Source: a virus (lineage: Duplodnaviria > Heunggongvirae > Uroviricota > Caudoviricetes). Taken from it: DNA of 34,125 nt. The DNA lies in the IMG/VR virus record IMGVR_UViG_2563366806_000008, positions 1 to 34,125 of that record. One strand, written 5' to 3'. Under the pieces are notes generated by a model. The model searched no databases, was not told the origin of the DNA, and was given only the letters and a program-made list of their open reading frames with translations. This document shows, in pieces, positions 1 through 33,542 of this stretch (the first letter of the stretch is position 1; every line of letters starts with the position of its first letter). Position numbers and translations under genes: made by a program.

Positions 1-1362
1 ATGTTTAAACCGGAACTCCTTTCCCCGGCGGGAACGCTGAAAAATATGCGTTACGCTTTCGCTTATGGCGCAGATGCTGTTTATGCGGGCCAGCCGCGTT
101 ACTCCCTGCGTGTGCGCAACAACGAATTCAACCACGAAAATCTTCAGCTCGGCATCAATGAAGCCCACGCGCTGGGGAAAAAGTTTTATGTCGTGGTCAA
201 CATTGCACCGCACAACGCCAAGCTGAAAACCTTTATCCGTGACCTGAAACCGGTGGTGGAAATGGGGCCGGATGCGCTGATTATGTCCGATCCAGGGCTG
301 ATTATGCTGGTGCGTGAGCACTTCCCTGAAATGCCGATCCACCTCTCGGTGCAGGCTAACGCCGTAAACTGGGCGACGGTGAAATTCTGGCAGCAAATGG
401 GCCTGACCCGCGTGATCCTCTCTCGCGAGCTGTCGCTGGAAGAGATTGAAGAGATCCGCAATCAGGTGCCGGATATGGAGATCGAGATCTTCGTTCACGG
501 CGCACTGTGCATGGCCTACTCCGGTCGCTGCCTGCTCTCTGGCTATATCAACAAGCGCGATCCGAACCAGGGTACCTGCACCAACGCCTGCCGCTGGGAG
601 TACAACGTCCAGGAAGGGAAAGAAGATGACGTTGGCAACATCGTACACAAGTACGAGCCGATTCCGGTGCAAAATGTTGAGCCGACGCTGGGTATCGGCG
701 CGCCAACCGACAAAGTGTTTATGATCGAAGAAGCCCAGCGTCCGGGCGAGTATATGACCGCGTTTGAAGATGAGCACGGCACTTACATCATGAACTCGAA
801 AGATCTGCGCGCCATCGCCCATGTAGAACGCCTGACCAAAATGGGCGTGCATTCGCTGAAAATCGAAGGCCGTACTAAATCTTTCTACTATTGCGCACGC
901 ACCGCACAGGTTTACCGTAAAGCTATCGATGACGCCGCTGCGGGCAAACCGTTCGATACCAGCCTGCTGGAAACTCTGGAAGGTCTGGCGCATCGTGGCT
1001 ATACCGAAGGTTTCCTGCGTCGTCATACTCACGACGATTATCAGAACTACGAATACGGTTATTCAGTTTCTGACCGCCAGCAGTTTGTTGGTGAGTTTAC
1101 CGGTGAGCGCAAGGGGGACCTCGCGGCGGTAGCGGTGAAAAATAAATTCTCCGTTGGCGACAGCCTTGAGCTGATGACGCCGCAAGGCAACATTAACTTT
1201 ACCCTTGAGCACATGGAAAACGCCAAAGGTGAAGCGATGCCGGTCGCACCAGGCGATGGTTATACTGTGTGGCTCCCGGTCCCGCAGGATCTTGAGCTCA
1301 ATTACGCTCTGCTGATGCGTAATTTCTCCGGGGAAACCACGCGTAACCCACACGGTAAGTGA
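1..1362 (+). CDS. yegQ: U32-family peptidase-like protein YegQ, complete 453-aa ORF (host chromosome)
   Basis: Full-length ORF in six-frame track; translation MFKPELLSPAGTL... recognised as E. coli YegQ (peptidase U32 family); lies outside the prophage direct repeat. Confidence 0.85.
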   Translation: MFKPELLSPAGTLKNMRYAFAYGADAVYAGQPRYSLRVRNNEFNHENLQLGINEAHALGKKFYVVVNIAPHNAKLKTFIRDLKPVVEMGPDALIMSDPGLIMLVREHFPEMPIHLSVQANAVNWATVKFWQQMGLTRVILSRELSLEEIEEIRNQVPDMEIEIFVHGALCMAYSGRCLLSGYINKRDPNQGTCTNACRWEYNVQEGKEDDVGNIVHKYEPIPVQNVEPTLGIGAPTDKVFMIEEAQRPGEYMTAFEDEHGTYIMNSKDLRAIAHVERLTKMGVHSLKIEGRTKSFYYCARTAQVYRKAIDDAAAGKPFDTSLLETLEGLAHRGYTEGFLRRHTHDDYQNYEYGYSVSDRQQFVGEFTGERKGDLAAVAVKNKFSVGDSLELMTPQGNINFTLEHMENAKGEAMPVAPGDGYTVWLPVPQDLELNYALLMRNFSGETTRNPHGK

Positions 1363-8524: not shown

Positions 8525-9751
8525 TCAACCTTTCAATGCTTCAATCGTATTATTAAGTCGACGCAACAGGTCGTCGTACGTCAATATGTCTATCATGTTG
8601 GCGTACTTACGTTTGATTATCTCAAAATCAAGCAACTGACCGTCGGTCATGTTACCGTTCGCTATCTGATCGCGTCCGACAATGATGATGGCTTTTGGGT
8701 TAGATATACGAATACACATTCCCGCTGGCAGAGAATTCTTGTAGGCATTCGTAAGCTCTTTTTCACCCTTAACACCCCATTTAGATAAATGAAAAATATA
8801 CTTTTCAGCCTGCATAATACCGCCGCTAAGTTCTGATGTAGGAATATAGTTATCGCGATAGGGCGTCTTGCGAAGGATCTTATCATCAAACGGCTTTTTG
8901 ACTTCGATGATATCAAGGTTGCCGTTTGCATCCACCAGTGCAATGTCTATAAACCGATTTGTTTTAGCCGAAGGATTAGAGTAATAGTCGAAAATTTTAA
9001 CCTTCTCGAGGACCTTGATATATTTTGGAAAAAGTAATGTGATGAAGGGTATCATCAGGCTCTGCCAGTCATCTTCAGACAAGTTAGTTTTGTTATTCAA
9101 CGCATCCTGGATAATGTCTCTTATGAGTGTATATTTCTCAATTTCGAGCTTATTTAAAACTTCTAAATCCAGTTTGTCGGTTTTTCTGATCACTGTTTTT
9201 CTGTTTAGGTAATGTTCATACCGTTCGCGAGCATCTTTCATACCATCAAGATAACCTGCGAGAATAGCGTGAACCCTTGCATTAGCATAGCGATCCAGTT
9301 CCCCTGTGTTGGGGAATTTACTTTGCAACTCCTGGAATACGCTTTTTGGTATAGCTTCCGGCTTATCTCCTCCGATGATGATGGGATTAGTGTGATCGAG
9401 TAGTTTTGAAAGCCGACCAAAAATGGAGACGTTGCGTTCTGACGCAAATACTTTCCTTTCAAGCTTGATGGACTTATGTATAAGGACATCTCGATTAATG
9501 CTTAGAATCCGTCCCGGAACTGTTATGTATTCATTATTAAGCGTGCCAAAATTAAAGGAATATTCGTAATCATTAAAATCCTGAACGGTTGACGGTGGGT
9601 TTCTCAAGTCCTGGAGTTGAAAGTTAAAAATTCGTGAAATGCATACTGTTTGAAATTTATTTAAACTCTCCCAAACCCAAATTATTTGTTCTCCGCTGTC
9701 ACCGTCGTAAGTCATAACAACGTCATTTGATACAAAGCTGAACTGTAACAT
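8525..9751 (-). CDS. Cargo protein (408 aa): N-terminal domain of unknown function plus C-terminal PD-(D/E)xK / RecB-like nuclease domain; candidate anti-phage effector, possibly Shedu (DUF4263)-like
   Basis: AT-rich ORF in the G/FI slot with good RBS (agagga) before ATG at 9751; motifs FIDIALVD (D269/D274), IIEVKK (E283-x-K285) and QAEKY (Q314-xxx-Y318) match nuclease motifs I, II, III. Confidence 0.6.
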   Translation of the reverse strand: MLQFSFVSNDVVMTYDGDSGEQIIWVWESLNKFQTVCISRIFNFQLQDLRNPPSTVQDFNDYEYSFNFGTLNNEYITVPGRILSINRDVLIHKSIKLERKVFASERNVSIFGRLSKLLDHTNPIIIGGDKPEAIPKSVFQELQSKFPNTGELDRYANARVHAILAGYLDGMKDARERYEHYLNRKTVIRKTDKLDLEVLNKLEIEKYTLIRDIIQDALNNKTNLSEDDWQSLMIPFITLLFPKYIKVLEKVKIFDYYSNPSAKTNRFIDIALVDANGNLDIIEVKKPFDDKILRKTPYRDNYIPTSELSGGIMQAEKYIFHLSKWGVKGEKELTNAYKNSLPAGMCIRISNPKAIIIVGRDQIANGNMTDGQLLDFEIIKRKYANMIDILTYDDLLRRLNNTIEALKG

Positions 9752-10041: not shown

Positions 10042-10569
10042 TTATTGCGGTATTTCCGGCCATTCAGGATTTGCAGGATCCACACGGCTGACCAGAACGC
10101 TGTAGCGTTCCCATGACTCCAGTCGTGCGCGCTCCTCATCCGTCGCCATATTCAGCCTGACGGTGCGTTCCAGCGGCTGGATAACGCTTTCCGCTTCGGA
10201 AAGTAACGCGGCCTTTTGTGATTCGGCCTGTTGTTGCTGTTCGTCTGCCGTATAAATCCGCTTAATCACGGCACCATCCTTAAACATCCATTTACCTGAG
10301 TCATCAGCACGTCGGTTGGCGGTAATATCAGGAACCTCGACAACGCTAAAACCTTCAGGGTTAAGCGTTGAAGCATCTCTGGTGATGCCGACAATTATAT
10401 TATTCTCGTCGTAAACAATCTTTATCGTGTCCTCCTGAAAATTACTTACTTCCTCATACCAGTTTTTTCCCTCTTCGGACCATAACCAGATAACATCAAA
10501 ATTTTTTGTCAGTTGATATTGGGCAACAGTTTTTGGATTACCCGCAATAATATTTTTTAAATGCTGCAT
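10042..10569 (-). CDS. G: Tail fibre assembly chaperone G (175 aa)
   Basis: Immediately downstream of H; 175 aa as in P2 gpG. Confidence 0.8.
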
Positions 10570-10572
10570 AAA

Positions 10573-12501
10573 TTACACCTGTGCGACGTTATACCATGTT
10601 CCATTGATGTATTTTTGTATTGGTCTGAATACTGCGGGGTCATCACCATCGACTTCACCGACAATACCAAGCCCGGTAATTACGTGCCCTGCTTTCTCAT
10701 ACATCACACCTTTTTGCATAGTCTGAACAACACGTGTGCCCAGGCGAATATCTCGTACATAGCGAGAATCCGATTCATCTTTGGTATATGCACCAACATC
10801 TCCCGCAGAGGGTTTGCGGGTTGTGGTGTAAAACTCTGACCAGTCAGCCTCAAATCCATAACCATCACGCGCTGAACGATAATAAATACCGCCGTTCTTA
10901 TAATTCACACGGAACTGTACGGCAGGGCAACTCCCCTCGCTCATATTGAAATGGAGGATTAATGTCGATGCGCCACCAATATTTGCTTGATAGACCCCGC
11001 TATTCCAGTTCCAGCCAACAGCTTTATCATTTCCGACAGTGCTTCCTGTTTTCCCTAAAGCAAATGCAGGCTGCTGGTTTTTCGTGTTGTAGTCTCGTCG
11101 CCAGCCAGGAGCATAAGCATCACCATGATTAATATAAGTGAATTGAGCGTTAGTGGTGCCGCCTCCGGTGGAAGTGCTTGGTGTTGTTACACGGATGGTC
11201 ATGGCACCTTTATTACCCATAACCTCAATAACGCAACCTGCAAGATGAATAGTTCCACAGCCAGTATCGGTAATAATTTTATTATTGCCGTATGACCATG
11301 AACATTTGCACATCCAGTACGGATGATTAAATGCACCACGGGAATCCAGCCATTCAATAAACTGAGCGGTTGTCCAGTTTCCGGCTTCAGTGCTCAAAGC
11401 GCCGCTATAAGCACGACAGGCACCGATATTTTTCGTGAAGGTATCCTTTCCCGGAATATCCGCACCGTTCTGATCTTTCTGAAGACGTTTTTCAGCATTG
11501 TCATAGGCAGACTTCACTGCTTTTGGTGTTGCGGCCAGCGTTTCAGAATCACTGTTGGTGGCGCTACTGAGCTGGACAAGGCCTTTTCGCGCCGTGGTGG
11601 CATCCTGCGCAGTGTATTTCCCGTTAGCAAGGTCATACGCTGTCTTAACCGCCTTTGGCGTTGCTGCAAGCGTTTCAGAATCGCTGTTGGTGGCGCTACT
11701 GAGCTGGACAAGACCTTTTCGCGCTGTGGTGGCGTCCTGTGCAGTGTATTTCCCGTTAGCAAGGTCATATGCTGCCTTTACCGCTTTTGGTGTTGCGGCG
11801 AGCGTTTCAGACGTGCTGTTGGTGGCGCTACTGAGCTGGACAAGGCCTTTTCGCGCTGTGGTGGCATCCTGCGCAGTGTATTTCCCGTTAGCAAGATCAT
11901 ACGCGGCCTTTACCGCTTTCGGCGTTGCGGCCAGTGTTTCAGACGTGCTGTTGATCGCACTGCTTAACTGAGTAAAACCTTTTGCGGTCAGCGAGGCGTC
12001 CGGGTGACGTCGTGACTGTTCATGCTCTGCAATTTTGTCATCAACGTAATCCTGCGTCGCCATCACCGTTGTGGTGTCAATGGTCAGCGCCACTGAGGCC
12101 ACACTGCTGACGATGATGACCATGCGACAGGTCTGCGAACGCCCTGAGCCTTCGGCAAGAGCTGGCTTATAACTTTCGGCCATGTTCGCCACGGCAATTA
12201 ATGTTCCCGCATCATCGTACAGGCCAAGCTCACGCATCCAGAAACCGCCCACCTCCGGCGGAATAACCAGCTCTGCGATAATATAATTACTGTTTCGTTT
12301 GTCCTGGCTGATTTTGTTCAGCGCATGTCGCCAGACTTCATGGATAAGCCCGGTCTGTCCGGCATCCGGGACAGGCAATTTACCACCGCCATCCCCGACG
12401 GCCATCGTGGTAATGTTGACCTTCCGCCCTCCAGGCGCGGTTGCCGCTGCCAGCTTTGCTGCACCGGCAGTGGTGATAACGGTTCTGAATTTTGTGCTCA
12501 T
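10573..12501 (-). CDS. H: Tail fibre protein H (642 aa)
   Basis: N-terminus MSTKFRTVITTAGAAKLAAA... typical of P2-type fibres; internal SETLAATPKAVK fibre repeats; variable C-terminal part. Confidence 0.85.
   Translation of the reverse strand: MSTKFRTVITTAGAAKLAAATAPGGRKVNITTMAVGDGGGKLPVPDAGQTGLIHEVWRHALNKISQDKRNSNYIIAELVIPPEVGGFWMRELGLYDDAGTLIAVANMAESYKPALAEGSGRSQTCRMVIIVSSVASVALTIDTTTVMATQDYVDDKIAEHEQSRRHPDASLTAKGFTQLSSAINSTSETLAATPKAVKAAYDLANGKYTAQDATTARKGLVQLSSATNSTSETLAATPKAVKAAYDLANGKYTAQDATTARKGLVQLSSATNSDSETLAATPKAVKTAYDLANGKYTAQDATTARKGLVQLSSATNSDSETLAATPKAVKSAYDNAEKRLQKDQNGADIPGKDTFTKNIGACRAYSGALSTEAGNWTTAQFIEWLDSRGAFNHPYWMCKCSWSYGNNKIITDTGCGTIHLAGCVIEVMGNKGAMTIRVTTPSTSTGGGTTNAQFTYINHGDAYAPGWRRDYNTKNQQPAFALGKTGSTVGNDKAVGWNWNSGVYQANIGGASTLILHFNMSEGSCPAVQFRVNYKNGGIYYRSARDGYGFEADWSEFYTTTRKPSAGDVGAYTKDESDSRYVRDIRLGTRVVQTMQKGVMYEKAGHVITGLGIVGEVDGDDPAVFRPIQKYINGTWYNVAQV
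11497..11982 (-). repeat. In-frame tandem repeats within H: about 3.7 copies of a 132-bp (44-aa) unit KGLVQLSSATNS(T/D)SETLAATPKAVKAAYDLANGKYTAQDATTAR
   Basis: Read directly from the H translation (residues about 174-335) and the near-identical DNA units starting near 11521, 11653, 11785, 11917. Confidence 0.8.
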
Positions 12502-12511
12502 TATTCCTCAC

Positions 12512-13042
12512 TTATCCGGGGTAAACCGTAATTACATCGCCGTCGTAAGCCACACCACCGGCGAACAGGTAGCCGGGAATGTCCCGGGTAATGTTCAGGC
12601 CAATAAGGTGACGGCTTGCAGGTTTGGCATCAGCAATCAGCCGTTCCATTTCCTGATACATTGCCTCTGTGATGCCACTTTCCAGTACACCAATATCAAG
12701 CCGGAAGGTGCCCGGCGGGTCACTGGTTTCCCACCACTCCGTCACGTTGATGAGATAGCCCAGCGGCTCCACCACACGCCGGATTGCACCTATCGTGCCC
12801 TTATGACAGTGGATGAAATAGGCATCGCGGATAACGGCGCGTTTTGTCGCTTCCGGCCACTTTTCATCCCACCTGTCGACCGAAAACGCCCACGCCAGCC
12901 ACGGCAGCAGATTTGCCGGACAGGTGTCCGGGTTCCACAGTTCACGAATACTGACCGGCGTTTTTTCAATTTCCGCACAGGCTTTTGCGGCGGCGACTTC
13001 AAGCGGTGATGAGCCGGTCGGCAGCAGGCGCGAATCACTCAT
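12512..13042 (-). CDS. I: Baseplate assembly protein I (176 aa)
   Basis: Synteny J-I-H; 176 aa as in P2. Confidence 0.8.
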   Translation of the reverse strand: MSDSRLLPTGSSPLEVAAAKACAEIEKTPVSIRELWNPDTCPANLLPWLAWAFSVDRWDEKWPEATKRAVIRDAYFIHCHKGTIGAIRRVVEPLGYLINVTEWWETSDPPGTFRLDIGVLESGITEAMYQEMERLIADAKPASRHLIGLNITRDIPGYLFAGGVAYDGDVITVYPG

Positions 13043-13947: not shown

Positions 13948-14295
13948 TCAACTCACAGGGATGGTTAACGAAAGTGGCTGGCCGGTATCGTTGTGCTGGC
14001 CGGTTAACGTGACCGTCATTCGCCCGTCAAAGCTGCGCGCCGTGGTGACGGATGACAGGGTGACGCGGGGTTCCCATTTCAGCACCGCCATGTAACAGGC
14101 GACCTTAATCTGCAACTCAAGCGCCGGGGTCTGCGGCTGGTCAATCATTGATGCCAGCAACGAGCCGTAATCACGACGCATCACCCGTGAGCCGACCGGT
14201 GTACGCAGGATATCGCCGATACTCTGGCTGATATGCTCAAGGTCAGTGACAGTCAGGCCATCACTGCGATTCATTCCGAGATAACGCGCTGTCAT
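13948..14295 (-). CDS. W: Baseplate wedge protein W (115 aa)
   Basis: Synteny V-W-J; 115 aa as in P2. Confidence 0.8.
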   Translation of the reverse strand: MTARYLGMNRSDGLTVTDLEHISQSIGDILRTPVGSRVMRRDYGSLLASMIDQPQTPALELQIKVACYMAVLKWEPRVTLSSVTTARSFDGRMTVTLTGQHNDTGQPLSLTIPVS

Positions 14296-14927
14296 AAAGG
14301 ACTCCCGGTTGTGCCGCCGCTGTCGCCGGGGTGTTTATGGGTATGCAGTACCTTACCGTTTGATGAGAGTTCACCGCCGGTATGTTCAATGTTGCCGCGC
14401 ATCGTCCCGCCCTTCTGCACTTCCAGCGTGCCGGTAATCAGCCTGTTGGTGCAGACCACCTCCGGTGTGTCCAGGGTGACGCGGGTTGATGCTTTCACCA
14501 TGACCACCGGCACCGTGGCAGTAACAGAATCAGAGGCCGTCACGCTGGCCGTTTTAATTCCGCTTACCGTAAGTGCACTGGTTTCGGGTTCATATTCAAT
14601 CACCGCCCCGTCAGGGAAACGGATATGCAGGGCATCCGCCGACGCAGACGGCGCGGGGTTATCGCCGGAATAAATCCCCGGCAGAACGAACGCCGTGTCG
14701 AGTTCACCGCCCACGGCCAGAATCAGCACCTGTTCCCCCACGGAAGGTGCCCACCATGTGCGCGAACGCCCGGCGCGATGGGTCAGCCACTGAAGCCAGT
14801 CGGTGCACATGCCGCCGGTCTGCACACGGCAGCGACCGGCGTTAAGGTCGGTTTCGACGACAATGCCGGTGCGTATCATGTTGCGCAGTGCGCGCGCGAG
14901 TTCCTGAATATTTGATAATGTGCTCAT
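14292..14927 (-). CDS. V: Baseplate spike/hub protein V (211 aa)
   Basis: Trimmed to Met giving MSTLSNIQELARALRNMIRTG...; 211 aa as in P2 gpV; the longer ORF (to 14996) would run into the divergent promoter region. Confidence 0.8.
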   Translation of the reverse strand: MSTLSNIQELARALRNMIRTGIVVETDLNAGRCRVQTGGMCTDWLQWLTHRAGRSRTWWAPSVGEQVLILAVGGELDTAFVLPGIYSGDNPAPSASADALHIRFPDGAVIEYEPETSALTVSGIKTASVTASDSVTATVPVVMVKASTRVTLDTPEVVCTNRLITGTLEVQKGGTMRGNIEHTGGELSSNGKVLHTHKHPGDSGGTTGSPL

Positions 14928-14973
14928 ACGGCAATAATGAGAGATATATACTCGATAAACCATTACAACCCGT

Positions 14974-14991
14974 TGTATCATTTTTGGCACA
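14974..14991. promoter_or_regulatory. Perfect TGT-N12-ACA dyad (Ogr-type late promoter box) upstream of V
   Basis: tgtatcatttttggcaca; palindromic dyad centred about 55 bp upstream of the V ATG; P2 late promoters carry this dyad near -55. Confidence 0.35.
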
Positions 14992-15010
14992 ATCAAGAAG
15001 GAACTGAAGT

Positions 15011-15754
15011 ATGGATAAATATCAAATCTGGGAAAATCAAAAAGACACCATCGCCCACCAAGAGTATTTAAAAATCTCCGACACCAATTTACTTGGACAT
15101 ATGCATATTGCCAATTACGAAGTTGTCCAACATGAATTAAGCAAATTCAACTCCCCTGACATTGTTTCCCGTCATTCATTTAACAGAGACAAATTTAAAA
15201 AAGAACATTTAAACATATCAAGACACCTTTTCAATTATATATCTTCAGCATTATCATTTAGAGATTCAACGCGCAACCTACTTAAAACAAAAGCATTAAA
15301 TATTGCCGACATTAAAATCAAATCAGAGGCATTCATCAATCATGAATTCCGAAATAATCCAGTAATAAAATTAATGGAGGATTTAAGAAACATCCTGACG
15401 CATCAAAACATGATCGCCCCATCAATATCATCATTCATGCACCTCCAAAGAAATATAAACATGCACGGCTTTTCATTTAAGATTGAAAGAATCTTAAACA
15501 ATGACAGAACCACCAAACAAACAAAAGAATATTTAATCTCACTAAAGCAAAAAAACTTATTCATTTTACCGATAATAGAAGAATACCAATACACGACTCT
15601 TAAGTATCAACACTGGCTTTTAGCAAGTATCTACACTGTTCATCAAGATACTTACCAAGAATACTGGAATGCGAGAAAAAACATCATGAACGAATGGGGA
15701 GGAGACACTCAGCTAATACCTAAAGAGAGTGAGCTCACTTATTTAACCAGATAA
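15011..15754 (+). CDS. Cargo ORF of unknown function (247 aa), opposite strand to the late operons; candidate accessory/defence gene
   Basis: Strongly AT-rich ORF with RBS aagaagga before the ATG; Asn/Lys/Ile-rich; occupies the S/V junction (P2 orf30 position) on the opposite strand; contains R126-x4-H131 (RNILTH). Confidence 0.6.
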   Translation: MDKYQIWENQKDTIAHQEYLKISDTNLLGHMHIANYEVVQHELSKFNSPDIVSRHSFNRDKFKKEHLNISRHLFNYISSALSFRDSTRNLLKTKALNIADIKIKSEAFINHEFRNNPVIKLMEDLRNILTHQNMIAPSISSFMHLQRNINMHGFSFKIERILNNDRTTKQTKEYLISLKQKNLFILPIIEEYQYTTLKYQHWLLASIYTVHQDTYQEYWNARKNIMNEWGGDTQLIPKESELTYLTR

Positions 15755-25542: not shown

Positions 25543-26472
25543 TCAAACCAGGCTTTTGCCTTGCTTCATTTTTTTAGATGAGTCTAAAAATTTGAAATTA
25601 TCATTAGATGAAAATATTCTTTCTGCGGTATGCCGAATGACTGAAGTATTGAAGACCGCAGCCTGCTCCTCATTACAACTGAATACACCCTCATGACCAT
25701 CAAACTCGCCCGCCAAAAGAAGGTTTTTTGATACTGGGAACAAAACTAAAGTGTCTTTTACACCAAACCCGGGGGAATAAGGGCCTCGTGCTAATTCAGG
25801 ATTAGTCCACATTAAGCAAACTGGGTTATCTGAAGTTATAAATGACCCTTGCCCATCAGATATGGTCATAAGTGACCAGTTGCGTTGATGCAACAACTTG
25901 GTGATAACAGGTACACATTTCATTTCCATATCTATCATGAACTCTCTGATTACATTGATTTCGAAATTATCCCCATCCACAAAATTTTTAATTTTTTCGT
26001 AAGCGAGATCATATGGCAAAGACTCACCCATTTCTTTCTCATAAGCTAATTTGCAATCGTCCCAACGCTCAGCCGAACTAACTGAGGATTTCATGATAAA
26101 CTTTGCTATTTGTTTCAATGGAGATGATAAATGTTCTCGCTGAGCAGGCGTACGTATTGCCAATAAGGAAATAAACTCCAGAATAACATCTTTGGTTTCG
26201 CCTGAAAACTCGCCCCCCTCCTCAAGTTTTCTTAAATGAGTAGCGACACTGCCTTCAAACTCTGCAAGAGAACTCTCGAGATAGTTTGGGTCAACTCCAT
26301 CCAATTCTAATCGGTTGAAATCTCTAACCCCCCCGACATTGCGAGTATTACTCTCAAAGGTTTTGCGCTCCTTTAAATCTATTACAGTTAATTTTGATTT
26401 TTTCCCCCCATTACTTGTAAACCCTTTCAAATAACATTGGGATAAAAAATGATGATGCCTTGCAACACTCAT
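25543..26472 (-). CDS. DUF4238-type cargo protein (309 aa from Met at 26472); candidate single-gene anti-phage protein
   Basis: AT-rich ORF in the tin/old slot; N-terminal HHFLSQCYLKGF resembles the DUF4238 signature (HH-x-x-P/S-Q-x-YL-x-x-F); RBS ggag before ATG at 26472; ORF extends upstream to 26514. Confidence 0.65.
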   Translation of the reverse strand: MSVARHHHFLSQCYLKGFTSNGGKKSKLTVIDLKERKTFESNTRNVGGVRDFNRLELDGVDPNYLESSLAEFEGSVATHLRKLEEGGEFSGETKDVILEFISLLAIRTPAQREHLSSPLKQIAKFIMKSSVSSAERWDDCKLAYEKEMGESLPYDLAYEKIKNFVDGDNFEINVIREFMIDMEMKCVPVITKLLHQRNWSLMTISDGQGSFITSDNPVCLMWTNPELARGPYSPGFGVKDTLVLFPVSKNLLLAGEFDGHEGVFSCNEEQAAVFNTSVIRHTAERIFSSNDNFKFLDSSKKMKQGKSLV

Positions 26473-26575
26473 ACTCAGCTCCGTTATGGCTATAATCGCA
26501 TAAATAATAAGCACTTATATTGCAATCATCTAGTTAAATACACAATATTTATGACTCCGAAATTTCATTAAATCA

Positions 26576-28789
26576 CTATTGATAGGTTTTACCAATTAGT
26601 GCCAGCTCGAAATGGATGCGTGGAATCTGCGAACGTTCAGCCTTTTTCATCCGCCCTGATGGCGCTATCTGGTACGGTTTTAATGGTTCGCAGTTTCTTT
26701 GTTGCCAATTCGGTCTCGGTGCACCATGTTTTAATGCACTCCTGAGCACCGTCACAACTTCCGGGTCATCCCATCCGATAACACCACTATCAACCAGATT
26801 TAACACCGCTGCGGCATGCTCAGACGGTGTAGGGTGCATAACCGGAACGTCACCGCCGGTGAACTTTCCACAGTTATTGACAGGACTCCGAGGCGCGGCG
26901 ATGCCGCTTTTTAAAGTCAAAGGCTCAACGACCGGCACTTTCGGCACAATGCGCCAGTCCGTCGTTCTGGTGATATGAATATGACGCGCGCCGAGATGCG
27001 GCGCGTAAATGCCGACCACTCTCTCGACTTCTTCCTCGTACTCGTTAACTTCATCCGACGGACTACGGGCGACCCTGACAGTCTGACAATCGCGCGGGAC
27101 ATTTGCCCCGCCCTGCGCGCTGATATACAACGCAAAATCACCACTGTCTGCGGCGGCGCGTGCAACCTCGACGCGTTCGTCAAACTCATCAGCAATGCTG
27201 ACGCCGCGAGGCAATTTGCGTAGTTCACGGTAAGCCCCCATTGTCGGCAGGCCAACCGTTTTAAATTGCGGGATGCGCCACGTTGACGCCCATGCGGTAA
27301 CAGCCGCCGCTGTGTCTTTCAGCGGCCTGCCGGTATCGTTATCGAGCTGACCATCCAGTGCATAGCCGTCGATGTTTTTTGAAATGTATTTCGCGATATA
27401 TCCCGCAGCACCGCCCCGGTTAAGGTGTTTTGCCTGAAAACGGTTTCGCGCAGCTCCTCTTTCGTCTCCATCCTCTTTGAGCGCGTAGCGACGCATGATT
27501 TCGATAATCTGGTTACGCTGGCGTGGATTACAAAAAAGCATCATATGCCAGTGCGGCGTTCCGTCGTGGTGTGGCTCGACGACACGCAAACCGTAGACCT
27601 GTAAATCATTATCCTTGAATGCCGTGCGCATCAGGCTCCAGATGCGGCAGAGATAACGCTGCGCATCCTTTGGATTAAATGCCTCATCGTTCCAGCCGTG
27701 ATTAAGCTGAACGGTTTTACTTTCGCCTTTTCTGACCTGACGTGTCGGGTGATACTTTGACGGCGCGGTCAGCGTGATAAACATCCCCACATCACCCTCT
27801 GCGGCGGCGTAACGCTCAATACCGGCAATGGTGTTCATCAGCTCCATCCGGCGAATTTCAGGATTAGAAATACTGCCCATCACCTTACTGATAAGGTCGA
27901 TGCGCTCGCCGGTTTCCCTGTTTTCAAGGTCACACGATTTAAGAAATTCCAGATTTGCCTGGCGGCGTGCACGCACATCACGAATGGCATGTTTACTGGC
28001 ATAAGGAGAACGGTCTTTATTGACCTCCCCGACAGCAATCAGTAACGCCTCATGCCAGCGCATACGCTGGCCTTTAAGCTGATGAGTCCACCACTCATCG
28101 TTAAACAGACGGGCAATGGCAGAATATGCCTGCCTCGTGGTCATCTGCCCTTTACGGTATTTTTTCCAGTAGAGCGGGGAAATATTGAAAGCACGTGCAG
28201 CGCCAGCAACATGACCATAGAGGTGAGCCTGCGCCTCATCCGTAAACAGCGATTCTTTTTCGCCATGCGCATCCACCCAGGCATCGCTGAGTTCCTCATA
28301 CATCATGAAAAGCTGCGATGAGATACGGGCAGCAAACTTTTTTAGCTCCTTATCATTCATTCCCGGCAGGCGCGCATAGTGGTCACGCTCTGCCAGAAAC
28401 AGTAACGACGCGTCGGTGTTCATTTCATGGCGCTGATTCACACGCTCAATGCGCGGCCATAAACGACGCTGAAAAGTGGATGTGAGGAAATAAAACCCGT
28501 GCACCGGGCTTTTATTGCGCCGGATGTAGTCATAGCGTGAAGTAAACAGCGAGCGCAAAAAGTAAGGCAGGCGGTTAATCGTGGATAAAACACCTTGCAC
28601 CTGACGCATCTCGTCACGTGTAAGGGGTCTTTCGCGCCCGACGGCCTCGCGTGGCGCGTTCCATGCATAAGCACCGGTAAACGCCTTACCGGTGCCTGCG
28701 GCAAATGCTGGCGGAGGGACAAAACGCCCGGAGGCTTTAACGGCCATATGAGCCAAAAGCCTCTGAACAACGCTTGCTGAGTTGCTCAA
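26576..28789 (-). CDS. A: Replication initiation protein A (rolling-circle nickase, 737 aa)
   Basis: Large last gene of the early operon; N-terminus MSNSASVVQRLLAHMAVKAS...; somewhat shorter than P2 gpA as recalled (761 aa). Confidence 0.8.
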   Translation of the reverse strand: MSNSASVVQRLLAHMAVKASGRFVPPPAFAAGTGKAFTGAYAWNAPREAVGRERPLTRDEMRQVQGVLSTINRLPYFLRSLFTSRYDYIRRNKSPVHGFYFLTSTFQRRLWPRIERVNQRHEMNTDASLLFLAERDHYARLPGMNDKELKKFAARISSQLFMMYEELSDAWVDAHGEKESLFTDEAQAHLYGHVAGAARAFNISPLYWKKYRKGQMTTRQAYSAIARLFNDEWWTHQLKGQRMRWHEALLIAVGEVNKDRSPYASKHAIRDVRARRQANLEFLKSCDLENRETGERIDLISKVMGSISNPEIRRMELMNTIAGIERYAAAEGDVGMFITLTAPSKYHPTRQVRKGESKTVQLNHGWNDEAFNPKDAQRYLCRIWSLMRTAFKDNDLQVYGLRVVEPHHDGTPHWHMMLFCNPRQRNQIIEIMRRYALKEDGDERGAARNRFQAKHLNRGGAAGYIAKYISKNIDGYALDGQLDNDTGRPLKDTAAAVTAWASTWRIPQFKTVGLPTMGAYRELRKLPRGVSIADEFDERVEVARAAADSGDFALYISAQGGANVPRDCQTVRVARSPSDEVNEYEEEVERVVGIYAPHLGARHIHITRTTDWRIVPKVPVVEPLTLKSGIAAPRSPVNNCGKFTGGDVPVMHPTPSEHAAAVLNLVDSGVIGWDDPEVVTVLRSALKHGAPRPNWQQRNCEPLKPYQIAPSGRMKKAERSQIPRIHFELALIGKTYQ

Positions 28790-30355: not shown

Positions 30356-31576
30356 TGTAGATTCAATCTGTCAATGCAACACCCCTTTCAATTATCTCTT
30401 TCGGTGTTTTGAACTTCAGTGTCTTTCTCGGTCTGTTGTTTAGCTGAGCAGCAACCAGATCTAGTTCATGTTGAGTATATTGGGCAAGACATGTCTTTTT
30501 AGGAAAGTACTGCCGAATTAGCCCATTTGTGTTCTCATTTGTTCCCCGCTGCCAAGGACTCTGAGGATCGCAGAAGTAAACTTTAACGCCGGTGCTGACA
30601 GTAAATTCTAGATGTCTGGCCAGTTCCATTCCTCTGTCCCATGTCAGTGATTTTCTGAGTTCTGACGGTAAACTCAGGAATTTGTCGGTAAGAGCCTGAT
30701 TTACTGAGACAGAATCTTTGCCCCTGAGTCTAAGGATGATCGTATAACGTGATTTTCGGTCTACAAGTGTGGCTATATGAGAGTTTTTTGTACCTGAGAC
30801 TAAATCGCCCTCCCAATGCCCCAGAGAGCGTCTGTTATCGATATTTCGGGAACGTTCGTGAATTGGTGTTCCGTTCACTATGTTAATCGTACCTCTTTCG
30901 CCTTTGCGGGTATGACGCCTGCCATGGCGAAGGCTATGCGACCGTCGCAGATGCTGTATATTCAGGTGGTGTAGCGCTTCACGGCTACGAAAGTACAGCG
31001 TTTTATAAATTGTCTCAGGTGATATTCGCAGCGTTTTTTGACGTGGTTTTGTTCGCCTTAACCATCCTGATATTTGCTCTGGAGACCATTTCATCTCCAG
31101 CTTTTCCAGAACAAGCTTTCGCAATGGTAAATTTTGATCCAGTAAGCACGGTTTTGGCCTTTTCGCCATTCTGTTGGCTCGGTTATTAGCATCAACAGCT
31201 TTGTAATAGCGTCTGCCCCGATTACGCTGAACTTCACGTGAGATCGTCGAAGGACTGCGATTCAGCGCAGTAGCTATCGCACGAATGCTCATTTTGGCTG
31301 ACAAACCAGCTCGTATCTCCTCGCGCTCAGACAGTGTCAGGTGAGCTACAGCCCGCTTACGCTCATGGGGTTTTATGCCGCCAGTATCCCTTAACATAGT
31401 GAAGATCGTTCCGGGTTTTGAACCCAGGATATTCGCTATTTCACTGAAGCCTGTTCCGTTCTTCCATAGTTCAAAAACAGAGGCTTTTTCCTCTGCTGTA
31501 AATGTTCGTCTCATTCAAAAAACCTCCGCAACCCCATGTTTTCACATAACTGTTGCGTTGACCAATTGAATCTACA
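30356..31576 (-). mobile_element. IS30 insertion sequence, 1221 bp, with imperfect 26-bp terminal inverted repeats and 2-bp AG target-site duplication
   Basis: Ends tgtagattcaatctgtcaatgcaaca (30356-30381) and tgtagattcaattggtcaacgcaaca (reverse complement of 31551-31576); flanking AG at 30354-30355 and 31577-31578. Confidence 0.9.
30363..31514 (-). CDS. insI: IS30-family transposase (383 aa)
   Basis: Translation MRRTFTAEEKASVFELWKNGTGFSEIANILG... with HTH N-terminus and DDE catalytic region; 383 aa as for IS30 transposase. Confidence 0.9.
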   Translation of the reverse strand: MRRTFTAEEKASVFELWKNGTGFSEIANILGSKPGTIFTMLRDTGGIKPHERKRAVAHLTLSEREEIRAGLSAKMSIRAIATALNRSPSTISREVQRNRGRRYYKAVDANNRANRMAKRPKPCLLDQNLPLRKLVLEKLEMKWSPEQISGWLRRTKPRQKTLRISPETIYKTLYFRSREALHHLNIQHLRRSHSLRHGRRHTRKGERGTINIVNGTPIHERSRNIDNRRSLGHWEGDLVSGTKNSHIATLVDRKSRYTIILRLRGKDSVSVNQALTDKFLSLPSELRKSLTWDRGMELARHLEFTVSTGVKVYFCDPQSPWQRGTNENTNGLIRQYFPKKTCLAQYTQHELDLVAAQLNNRPRKTLKFKTPKEIIERGVALTD

Positions 31577-32528: not shown

Positions 32529-33542
32529 ATGGCAATCAAAAAACTCGATGATGGTCGATATGAAGTGGACATCCGCCCTACTGGACGTAATGGAAAACGC
32601 ATCCGTAGGAAGTTTGATAAGAAAAGCGAAGCTGTCGCTTTCGAGAAATACACGTTGTACAACCACCACAATAAAGAATGGCTATCAAAACCAACAGACA
32701 AGCGACGTCTGTCGGAGCTGACACAGATCTGGTGGGATTTAAAGGGTAAACACGAAGAGCATGGGAAATCTAATCTTGGAAAAATTGAAATCTTCACAAA
32801 AATAACGAATGACCCATGCGCATTTCAAATTACGAAATCGCTTATCAGCCAATACTGCGCCACCCGAAGAAGTCAGGGTATTAAACCTTCGAGTATCAAT
32901 CGTGATTTAACATGTATTAGCGGCATGTTTACAGCCCTGATTGAAGCGGAGTTATACTTTGGTGAGCACCCTATCAGAGGGACAAAAAGGCTTAAGGAGG
33001 AAAAACCAGACACAGGCTATCTCACGCAGGAAGAAATTGCCTTACTGCTCGCAGCTCTTGACGGCGACAACAAAAAGATTGCGATTCTTTGCCTGAGTAC
33101 TGGAGCACGTTGGGGAGAAGCAGCTCGTTTGAAAGCAGAAAATATCATTCATAACCGCGTCACGTTTGTTAAAACGAAAACAAACAAACCACGCACCGTC
33201 CCGATCTCAGAGGCTGTTGCCAAAATGATCGCGGATAACAAACGAGGTTTTTTATTCCCTGATGCTGATTACCCTCGCTTCAGACGAACAATGAAAGCAA
33301 TAAAACCGGATTTGCCAATGGGGCAAGCCACACATGCACTAAGGCACAGCTTTGCCACTCATTTCATGATTAATGGAGGAAGTATTATCACGCTACAACG
33401 GATACTAGGTCACACGCGGATTGAGCAAACTATGGTTTACGCTCATTTTGCTCCAGAGTACCTTCAGGACGCCATTTCTCTTAATCCGCTGAGAGGTGGT
33501 ACTGAGGCCGAGAGTGTCCACACAGTGTCCACAGTAGAGTAA
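32529..33542 (+). CDS. int: Tyrosine integrase (337 aa)
   Basis: 337 aa as in P2 Int; C-terminal catalytic motifs (ARWGE, HALRHSFATH, LGHTRIEQTMVYAH with the Tyr); ends about 70 bp before the att core. Confidence 0.9.
   Translation: MAIKKLDDGRYEVDIRPTGRNGKRIRRKFDKKSEAVAFEKYTLYNHHNKEWLSKPTDKRRLSELTQIWWDLKGKHEEHGKSNLGKIEIFTKITNDPCAFQITKSLISQYCATRRSQGIKPSSINRDLTCISGMFTALIEAELYFGEHPIRGTKRLKEEKPDTGYLTQEEIALLLAALDGDNKKIAILCLSTGARWGEAARLKAENIIHNRVTFVKTKTNKPRTVPISEAVAKMIADNKRGFLFPDADYPRFRRTMKAIKPDLPMGQATHALRHSFATHFMINGGSIITLQRILGHTRIEQTMVYAHFAPEYLQDAISLNPLRGGTEAESVHTVSTVE

Follow-up and report, generated by a model that had tools for sequence, protein, structure and literature searches.

A PF03406 repeat array in the tail-fibre gene H of a P2-like prophage

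The tail fibre of phage P2, gpH (NC_001895, 669 aa), joins an N-terminal PF12571 domain to units of the repeat family PF03406 and is encoded within the gene order V-W-J-I-H-G. The repeat considered here is already known, as a curated Pfam family that is present in this reference phage. A paper by Haggard-Ljungquist et al. from 1992 (J Bacteriol 174:1462, cited in PMC12143355) reportedly covers, as its title has it, P2 tail-fibre gene sequences and the horizontal transfer of fibre genes; the repeats go unmentioned in two papers on engineering the P2 fibre. Single PF03406 units occur in Mu S and in the lambda side fibre Stf (orf-401/orf-314), where the unit occupies aa 358-396 of orf-401. In Mu the distal modules of S and S' are served by the chaperones U and U' (PDB 5yvq, 8ju3) and are switched by Gin-mediated inversion, and in lambda a swappable distal end is paired with the chaperone Tfa. 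PF03406 was listed in 2021 among repeat families without known structure (PMC8078820).

Here we describe such an array in a stretch of 34,125 nucleotides (IMG/VR record IMGVR_UViG_2563366806_000008), referred to below as the window. About 80% of the first 25 kb of the window matches P2-like phages at 95-97% nucleotide identity, and 80% matches P2 itself at 95.5%. The array is real, ordinary and, in outline, well understood.

Layout of gene H and its neighbours

The locus is made up of the following features, given in window positions, with amino acids numbered along the H product.

10573..12501, minus strand: tail-fibre gene H, an open reading frame of 642 aa plus stop, with Pfam matches to PF12571, to PF03406 (four) and, weakly, to gp37_C
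12049..12501, minus strand: N-terminal fibre domain, aa 1-151 (PF12571 Phage_tail_fib, E 2.4e-58, profile positions 1-150 of 150)
11890..12021, minus strand: repeat unit 1, aa 161-204, the divergent first copy, placed by motif register and unit alignment
11758..11889, minus strand: repeat unit 2, aa 205-248, with 13 nt differences from unit 3 and 13 from unit 4
11626..11757, minus strand: repeat unit 3, aa 249-292, with 13 nt differences from unit 2 and 16 from unit 4
11494..11625, minus strand: repeat unit 4, aa 293-336, the terminal copy, ending ...AYDNA where the other units end ...AYDLA
11434..11493, minus strand: conserved linker EKRLQKDQNGADIPGKDTFT, aa 337-356, the main mosaic junction zone
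10771..11433, minus strand: Mu S'/P1 S'-like receptor-binding body, aa 357-577, from matches to PDB 8ju3, Mu Sv' and P1 Sv'
10576..10770, minus strand: C-terminal tip of P2 H/Mu S type, aa 578-642, from matches to P2 H, Mu S and 5yvq_A 436-503
10042..10569, minus strand: gene G, tail-fibre assembly chaperone of 175 aa (PF02413 Caudo_TAP, E 2e-35)

The order and sizes of the genes from V to G agree with the P2 late operon: the ORFs upstream of H, at 115, 302 and 176 aa, fit the sizes of W, J and I, and the V product carries Phage_base_V and spike domains. The next ORF after G (8525..9751) encodes Shedu SduA and is followed by an ORF the size of a tail-sheath gene, as in the P2 order. Homology to P2 Orf30 was sought for the ORF at 15011..15754, with no significant match. 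The top PHROG families for H itself are annotated 'tail fiber protein'. Its N-terminal homology, its position in the operon and the cognate G downstream together indicate a P2-type (Peduovirus) gpH, and aa 1-151 presumably attach the fibre to the baseplate, as the name of the PF12571 family and the biology of P2 suggest.

Downstream of the array, H is a mosaic in which a Mu S'/P1 S'-like body is followed by a P2 H-like tip and accompanied by a chaperone of P2 G/Mu U type. Amino acids 334-640 match the Mu S/S' fibre in PDB 8ju3 with an E value of 4e-168, aa 328-642 are 71% identical to Mu Sv', and the body is 89% identical to P1 Sv' at the nucleotide level. The last 65 aa align with P2 H 605-669 at 81.5% identity and with Mu S 437-502 at 52%. 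G shares 92.6% of its residues with P2 G, 89.7% with Mu U and 56% with Mu U', and matches 5yvq_B (Mu U) with an E value of 1e-103. The first-pass annotation of this DNA had expected host-range specificity to reside downstream of the repeats, together with G, and had suggested aligning the C-terminal region with known receptor-binding domains; the matches to Mu Sv' and 8ju3, to the P2 H tip and to P2 G and Mu U agree with that expectation. By analogy with Mu, whose fibre and chaperone are treated in PMC9608196, the tip is presumably the chaperone-binding end.

Repeat units, copy number and mosaicism

The array consists of four consecutive in-frame units of 44 aa (aa 161-336; 11494..12021, minus strand). 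About four copies of a motif-bearing 44-aa unit had been noted previously at 11497-11982, a span that lies inside the array, and the motif SETLAATPKAVK is indeed present in every unit, at aa 187, 231, 275 and 319, with a spacing of exactly 44 aa. Tandem Repeats Finder detected a period of 132 bp (11500-11943; 3.4 copies with 89% matches, score 706, without indels), and a repeat search returned three 226-nt copies offset by 132 nt at 85-88% identity. Identity of 89% across 3.4 copies of 132 bp excludes chance by a wide margin. PF03406 matches H in four stretches with 266.4 bits, the cut-off being 22 (E 5.4e-81), the best stretch being aa 170-210 (profile positions 1-41 of 42), and the family core S-E-T-L-A-A-T-P-K-A-V-K recurs at a 44-aa period, within the unit size of about 42-44 aa. 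Judged from sequence, the score, the periodicity and the fibre-protein context all place the array in PF03406 (Phage_fiber_2, "Phage tail fibre repeat"). The final copy in other species likewise ends in the residues DNA. An AlphaFold2 prediction for H aa 151-350 from the single sequence had a mean pLDDT of 44.6 and a pTM of 0.27, values too low for the model to be informative.

The units had been called near-identical and said to differ by only a few nucleotides. As protein they are (93-95% identity), whereas their likeness as DNA is moderate: within units 2-4, any two are separated by 13-16 differences per 132 nt (88-90% identity), and unit 1 differs from them at 43-50 nt (62-67% identity), its 3' half being much closer. 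The longest exact tracts shared between units measure 30 nt for adjacent units and 41 nt for units 2 and 4. Since the units are less alike than had been claimed, the array is less unstable than that description implied. Differences between units lie mostly at synonymous third positions (8-13 third-position differences per pair among units 2-4, with only 2-3 amino acid changes per pair), and the H reading frame is thus under purifying selection.

Comparison with 109 distinct H alleles from IMG/VR showed that the number of units is polymorphic: one copy is present in 7 alleles, two in 20, three in 12, four in 55 and five in 12, and the remaining 3 are truncated genes with no units. Four copies is the mode, the 44-aa spacing is invariant and the reading frame is kept in all alleles regardless of copy number. 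H homologues in other Enterobacteriaceae genera have 1-4 copies, spaced in the same way, and DNA matching the repeat region is present in 1631 of the 5426 complete E. coli genomes (~30%). When alleles were sorted into 20 classes by C-terminal tail, with at least 93% identity inside each class, 7 classes were found with two or three copy numbers, one of them with 3, 4 and 5. All 8 distinct proteins of the window's own class (312-aa tail) have four copies, and the variation within classes lies in others than this one. Adjacent units 3 and 4 of one 5-copy allele, L022, differ by 2 nt, the mark of a recent duplication; with one 132-nt block removed, L022 is 98.9% identical to a 4-copy allele. The closest pair of 4-copy and 5-copy alleles is still apart at 25 other sites. 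Taken together, the polymorphism and the L022 duplication indicate that units are gained and lost, though rarely. The preferred copy number differs by C-terminal class, being two for the P2 type, four for most Mu S'-like types and five for the 709-aa type, and it persists despite the shuffling of array sequences between alleles.

How far alleles diverge changes in patches from one unit to the next, and per nucleotide the units have diverged more than the N-terminal part; at 21 of the 46 polymorphic unit sites the identical two bases segregate at two or more unit positions. Where these shared polymorphisms are synonymous, they could in part reflect recurrent mutation instead of gene conversion. 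Each unit is mostly nearest to the same-position unit of other phages (window units 2 and 3 differ from units 2 and 3 of allele L010 by 0 and 1 nt), which implies that the array is old and largely stable. All 4- and 5-copy classes share SAYDNAEKRLQKDQNGADIP and part at the next residue; it is in the conserved linker that follows the array, and not within the array, that most module junctions fall. The earlier proposal that the repeats are a substrate for expansion, contraction and recombination is supported by the series of one to five copies, the seven variable classes, L022 and the shared polymorphisms.

We propose that the array is four PF03406 copies forming the proximal shaft of a P2-type gpH, set between the N-terminal domain and a swappable distal module that folds with G, and we consider this reading, mechanism included, very probably correct. 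Each 44-aa unit would be one structural module of the shaft, in which case each added copy would lengthen the shaft by a fixed step. The units, the linker after them and the conserved N-terminal part may act as DNA homology anchors. Rare unequal crossing-over or slippage would add or remove exactly one unit, homologous recombination and gene conversion would shuffle unit sequences, and the distal specificity module may be exchanged by homologous recombination among fibre genes of P2, Mu, P1 and lambda type. It is also conceivable, though we think it unlikely, that copy number is an adaptive setting in which shaft length suits the receptor-binding module and the depth at which its receptor lies under O-antigen or capsule. 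Such matching would account for the strongly preferred copy number of each C-terminal class, and simple linkage by descent fits as well.

Alternative readings of the locus

A more dynamic interpretation would make the array a fast contingency locus, expanding and contracting at high frequency to yield fibre-length or on/off variants within the timescale of a single infection. Variation in copy number among close relatives, the very recent duplication that left two adjacent units 2 nt apart and the exact 30-41 nt tracts common to units are in keeping with this; against it, units 2-4 have diverged at 10-12% of their nucleotides, units are mostly closest to same-position units in other phages, the closest 4- and 5-copy alleles are separated by those 25 further sites, and near-identical 4-copy arrays recur in the independent contigs L013 and L019, whose H genes show 2 and 3 differences from that of the window along 1929 nt. 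Because the unit is 132 nt, or 3 x 44, a change in copy number never turns H off, and neither the frame shift nor the expression switch of a phase-variable repeat was found among the alleles, which are in frame at all copy numbers. We therefore regard a contingency locus as very unlikely. Recurrence of the array in those two contigs also bears on whether the repeat count is an artefact of short-read assembly, with repeats collapsed or expanded. Assemblies are well known to go wrong at tandem repeats, and database entries do disagree in copy number, but the units are distinguished by 13-50 positions, so that reads of at least 100 nt are placed unambiguously; a complete E. coli genome matches the array at 99.2%, and genes of equal length are present in four phage isolates, vB_EcoM-12474II to V. 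Near-identical arrays known from independent sources exclude an assembly artefact, to which we assign hardly any probability.

Two further readings concern what else the locus might encode, one of them invoking plus-strand ORFs opposite the repeats:

11323..11967, plus strand: antisense shadow ORF of 214 aa, no gene; its frame lacks stops in units 2-4 and has stops at 11299 and 11965
11555..11971, plus strand: second antisense shadow ORF, of 138 aa, no gene; stop-free between 11504 and 11969

Were one of these a real overlapping gene, the repeat might be conserved partly on its account. The lengths of the two ORFs invite that view, as does the finding that the frame of the 214-aa ORF, which is codon-aligned with H, stays open across units 2..n in 47 of the 69 other alleles. 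In such a codon-aligned frame, however, a stop arises only opposite a sense codon TTA, CTA or TCA, all of them seldom used in genes of E. coli, and open shadow frames are thus to be expected. Inter-unit substitutions sit on third positions of the H frame, and units are only 68-80% identical to one another in the 214-aa frame, compared with 93-95% in H. The frame of the 138-aa ORF scores better between units (88-91%), yet it is open in only 2 of the 69 other alleles. Overall, inter-unit identity is 63-80% in two antisense frames and 88-91% in the third, which is interrupted by a stop in unit 4. Both ORFs terminate at the edge of the highly similar units, and the previous attribution of these long ORFs to the repeats proved sound: they occupy stop-poor frames across units 2-4, with stops resuming beyond. 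The substitution pattern and poor conservation rule out real antisense genes, an extremely improbable reading, and both ORFs should be flagged as artefacts in annotation. The other reading casts the locus as a switch of the Mu G/P1 C type, with the repeats or the linker bounding an invertible segment that holds two specificity modules. Mu Sv' and P1 Sv', the homologues of distal H, both lie in invertible segments, and the constant part of the Mu fibre ends directly after its single PF03406 unit and linker. Positions 10500-12600, however, contain no inverted repeats, Mu gixL/gixR have no match in or near H (the best matches are 9-14 nt long and scattered over the window), and a single chaperone gene follows H. 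Nor is the SduA ORF beyond G an invertase: a serine invertase (gin/cin/pin) was sought beside G, and no ORF of at least 80 aa between G and the tail-sheath-sized ORF has a recombinase match. With neither a gix-like site nor inverted repeats, an invertible segment is ruled out at H, and its probability is virtually nil.

Comparison with described fibres

As a discovery the array has small value, and its practical value is modest. Together with the linker that follows, it forms a natural exchange junction for distal fibre modules, which makes the junction a candidate fusion point for engineered P2/P4-based delivery particles (compare PMC9594776, PMC9942202). The natural series of one to five copies is a ready set for asking whether fibre length affects adsorption. 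The suggestion that E. coli K-12 StfR is rich in PF03406 proved wrong, as Pfam assigns it PF08400, Gp34_trimer, Collar and PF03335, and no PF03406.

The H genes of vB_EcoM-12474II to V (MK907236-39, NC_049457) have the same length as that of the window, 1929 nt, and align with it over 100% of their length at 96.7% nucleotide identity, a divergence of about 3%. Equal length, full coverage and this level of identity place them in the 4-copy allele class of the window. The gpH of fiAA91-ss (NC_022750, 692 aa) agrees with the window in its N-terminal part, its linker and the start of its distal module, but has three units and a longer C-terminal end; it lacks a counterpart of window unit 2, and its units 2 and 3 correspond to window units 3 and 4, with 7 nt differences each. 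P2 gpH shares its domain architecture and gene order with the window, and aa 1-251 of the window's H are 95.2% identical to it. P2 gpH has two units where the window has four, and departs right after the AVK of the second into another distal module, TVMDETNKKAPLNSPALTG..., where the window continues towards a Mu S'/P1 S'-like body.

More distant fibres share parts of this plan. In Mu S the single unit leads into the same DNA..RL.KD.NGADIP linker as in the window, and the distal part and chaperones of Mu are akin to H and G. Mu nevertheless has a different N-terminal part, and the window, unlike Mu, has no gix site, no invertase beside G and no second cassette. Lambda Stf resembles the window in combining a swappable distal end with a chaperone, and differs in its N-terminal domain (PF08400), in its single unit and in being the side fibre of a siphovirus.

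The repeat array and its reading frames

Across the first 25 kb of the window, ~80% of the sequence aligns with P2, Wphi, P2_AC1 and relatives at 95-97% identity, a peptidase U32 gene taken as host DNA opens the window (1..1362, plus strand), and a tyrosine integrase gene lies toward the other end (32529..33542, plus strand). The window is therefore an integrated P2-like prophage with a host flank, not a packaged phage genome, and the fibre gene is H. Upstream of H are ORFs with sizes as in P2 I, J and W, and V with spike domains. The features concerned are:

10573..12501, minus strand: tail-fibre gene H, 642 aa
10042..10569, minus strand: chaperone gene G after H, Caudo_TAP tail-fibre assembly protein, 175 aa
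11890..12021, minus strand: repeat unit 1
11758..11889, minus strand: repeat unit 2
11626..11757, minus strand: repeat unit 3
11494..11625, minus strand: repeat unit 4
11323..11967, plus strand: shadow ORF, 214 aa
11555..11971, plus strand: shadow ORF, 138 aa

Pfam searches demonstrated that the array belongs to the PF03406 family ('Phage tail fibre repeat') within a P2-type H gene: PF03406 matches H four times (266 bits, cut-off 22; E 5.4e-81), aa 1-151 belong to PF12571, the phage tail-collar fibre N-terminal domain, and gp37_C gives a weak match. Tandem Repeats Finder places 3.4 copies of a 132-bp period at 11500-11943 (89% matches, 0 indels, score 706), and a separate repeat search returned three 226-nt copies at 132-nt spacing with 85-88% identity. 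SETLAATPKAVK occurs in the protein at aa 187, 231, 275 and 319, a spacing of exactly 44 aa, and sets the register of four in-frame units spanning aa 161-336 (12021..11494). Position, period, copy number and motif are as the first-pass annotation gave them, and the feature is real, rightly interpreted in outline and already known; of 5426 complete E. coli genomes, 1631 contain DNA matching the repeat region.

The accompanying description of the copies as only a few nucleotides apart was wrong. Pairwise differences among units 2-4 number 13, 13 and 16 per 132 nt (88-90% identity), and unit 1 differs from them at 43-50 positions, its 3′ half being much closer. The longest exact tracts in common are 30 nt between adjacent units and 41 nt between units 2 and 4. 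Among units 2-4, third codon positions hold 8-13 of the differences in each pair, amino-acid changes number only 2-3 per pair, and protein identity between units in the H frame is 93-95%. As protein the units are therefore near-identical; they have diverged under purifying selection and do not represent a fresh duplication.

Long antisense ORFs had been attributed to the repeats, and our analysis agrees. Two of the three plus-strand frames are stop-free across units 2-4, bounded by stops at 11299 and 11504 at the low-coordinate end and at 11965 and 11969 at the high-coordinate end; the 214-aa ORF extends ~170 nt past the array. In its frame, protein identity between units falls to 68-80%, showing that selection acts on the reading frame of H. 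An antisense stop in the codon-aligned frame arises only opposite a sense TTA, CTA or TCA codon, all three uncommon in E. coli genes, so this frame is expected to be open; across units 2 to n it is open in 47 of 69 other alleles, and the other antisense frame in only 2 of 69. Both plus-strand ORFs are shadow ORFs, lengthened through repetition of a stop-free unit.

Copy number among related H alleles

A protein search and an exact DNA pattern recovered 109 distinct complete H sequences from IMG/VR, a set biased to close relatives of the query, in which unit spacing is 44 aa throughout.

Copies of the 44-aa unit in distinct H alleles from IMG/VR
Copies: distinct alleles
0 (short, truncated genes): 3
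1: 7
2: 20
3: 12
4: 55
5: 12

In bacterial assemblies sampled at one genome per species, P2-like H homologues carry 1-4 copies, again at 44-aa spacing, in genera and species including Citrobacter, Salmonella, Escherichia albertii, Buttiauxella and Scandinavium. Across otherwise equivalent genes, the array thus ranges from 1 to 5 copies in steps of whole units. When proteins were grouped by sequence past the last unit (at least 93% identity within a tail class), 7 of 20 classes included two or three copy numbers: one combines 3 copies (4 proteins), 4 copies (14) and 5 copies (1), another 3 copies (3) and 4 copies (6), and the P2-type class 1 copy (2) and 2 copies (10). The window's own class has only 4 copies, in all eight distinct proteins. 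On two related IMG/VR contigs, L069 and L076, H ends early, at 322 and 289 aa, directly past the third unit; the shortened genes may encode disrupted fibres or be pseudogenes.

For the most part, a unit's nearest match is its positional counterpart in other phages. Units 2 and 3 of the window are 0 and 1 nt away from those of the L010 allele, and units 2 and 3 of the isolated phage fiAA91-ss, which has three units and the same downstream module, are counterparts of window units 3 and 4. Recent events are also visible: units 3 and 4 of the L022 allele differ by 2 nt, and once a 132-nt block is taken out, this allele and a 4-copy allele are told apart by 25 of 2250 sites. Whole units are therefore indeed gained and lost, but slowly relative to allele spread. 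When 4-copy alleles are compared, the units diverge more per nucleotide than the N-terminal part does, and the divergence is patchy across units (6, 0, 5 and 7 differences in units 1-4 of the L005 allele). Across 39 distinct 4-copy arrays, 46 sites of the unit vary within at least one of units 2-4, and 21 of them have the same pair of bases segregating at two or more unit positions, which is suggestive of gene conversion or unequal exchange between units; recurrent synonymous mutation could contribute.

That the array is a fast contingency locus is unlikely: the units are 10-12% diverged, every one has positional counterparts in other phages, and a 132-nt unit never disrupts the reading frame. 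A repeat count produced by misassembly is excluded by the recurrence of near-identical arrays in independent contigs, one complete genome and isolated phages. An invertible switch of the Mu/P1 type is likewise excluded, as no inverted repeats occur in 10500-12600, no gix-like site was found in or near H, and the gene past G encodes Shedu, not an invertase. We propose that each unit would form one module of a trimeric shaft, with copy number setting fibre length, and that unit number may change via unequal crossing-over or slippage, with gene conversion possibly also behind array changes. An AlphaFold model of the repeat was unusable (pLDDT 44.6), and a survey from 2021 includes PF03406 with the repeat families that lack a known structure (PMC8078820).

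Other genes of the prophage

Several further genes were noted:

8525..9751, minus strand: Shedu defence protein SduA, 408 aa (Pfam SduA_C E 3e-33; PADLOC SduA E 1e-219)
14292..14996, minus strand: spike gene V, mechanical ORF with TTG start, 234 aa
15011..15754, plus strand: 247-aa ORF, phrog_12680 (E 6e-165), a PHROG of unknown function
25543..26514, minus strand: DUF4238 protein, 323 aa, full-length match to the PADLOC candidate defence model 'DUF4238-Pers' (E 2e-219)
30363..31514, minus strand: transposase, 383 aa, with HTH_38 and rve integrase-core domains

The SduA gene, with a GC content of 39.5% (window 51.5%), is located between G and the tail-sheath gene, where P2 has fun(Z), and the DUF4238 gene (GC 39%) adjoins replication gene A (26576..28789). 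The 247-aa ORF, of very low GC (33%) and with no Pfam or PADLOC matches, occupies the V-S gap, the P2 slot of the nonessential orf30, is unrelated to Orf30, and may be an uncharacterised accessory (moron) gene. The transposase, presumably IS30-type, sits in the early region and suggests that an IS inserted there, possibly inactivating the prophage. In P2, V measures 636 nt (211 aa), shorter than the V ORF here, whose true start is probably an internal ATG.

Distal fibre, chaperone and module junction

Downstream of the array H is a mosaic. Residues 334-640 match the solved Mu S/S′ fibre 8ju3 (E 4e-168), residues 328-642 are 71% identical to Mu Sv′, and nucleotides 1016-1718 of the gene share 89% identity with P1 Sv′. 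The last 65 aa depart from the Mu S′ pattern and align with the tips of P2 H (81.5% identity) and Mu S (52%). G resembles P2 G (92.6% identity) and Mu U (89.7%) far more than Mu U′ (56%), and matches 5yvq_B at E 1e-103. H is therefore a three-part mosaic composed of a P2 N-terminus with repeats, a Mu S′/P1 S′-like body, and a P2 H/Mu S-type tip with matching chaperone. Because the Mu chaperone is reported to bind distally on the fibre, ensuring correct assembly and trimerisation (PMC9608196), tip and chaperone would be expected to travel together, and the H/G pattern fits this. These homologies support the earlier expectation that specificity resides downstream of the repeats, with G.

In P2-type H genes, divergence begins directly past the AVK motif of unit 2. 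SAYDNAEKRLQKDQNGADIP is common to all 4- and 5-copy classes, which part at the next residue; this conserved linker directly after the array is therefore the main module junction. The idea that K-12 StfR has many PF03406 copies proved wrong on Pfam testing. By the same Pfam model P2 gpH has two copies, and Mu S and lambda orf-401 one each, compared with four in the window H. Following its single unit, Mu S carries the same linker as the window, and the boundary of the Mu G segment lies just past it.
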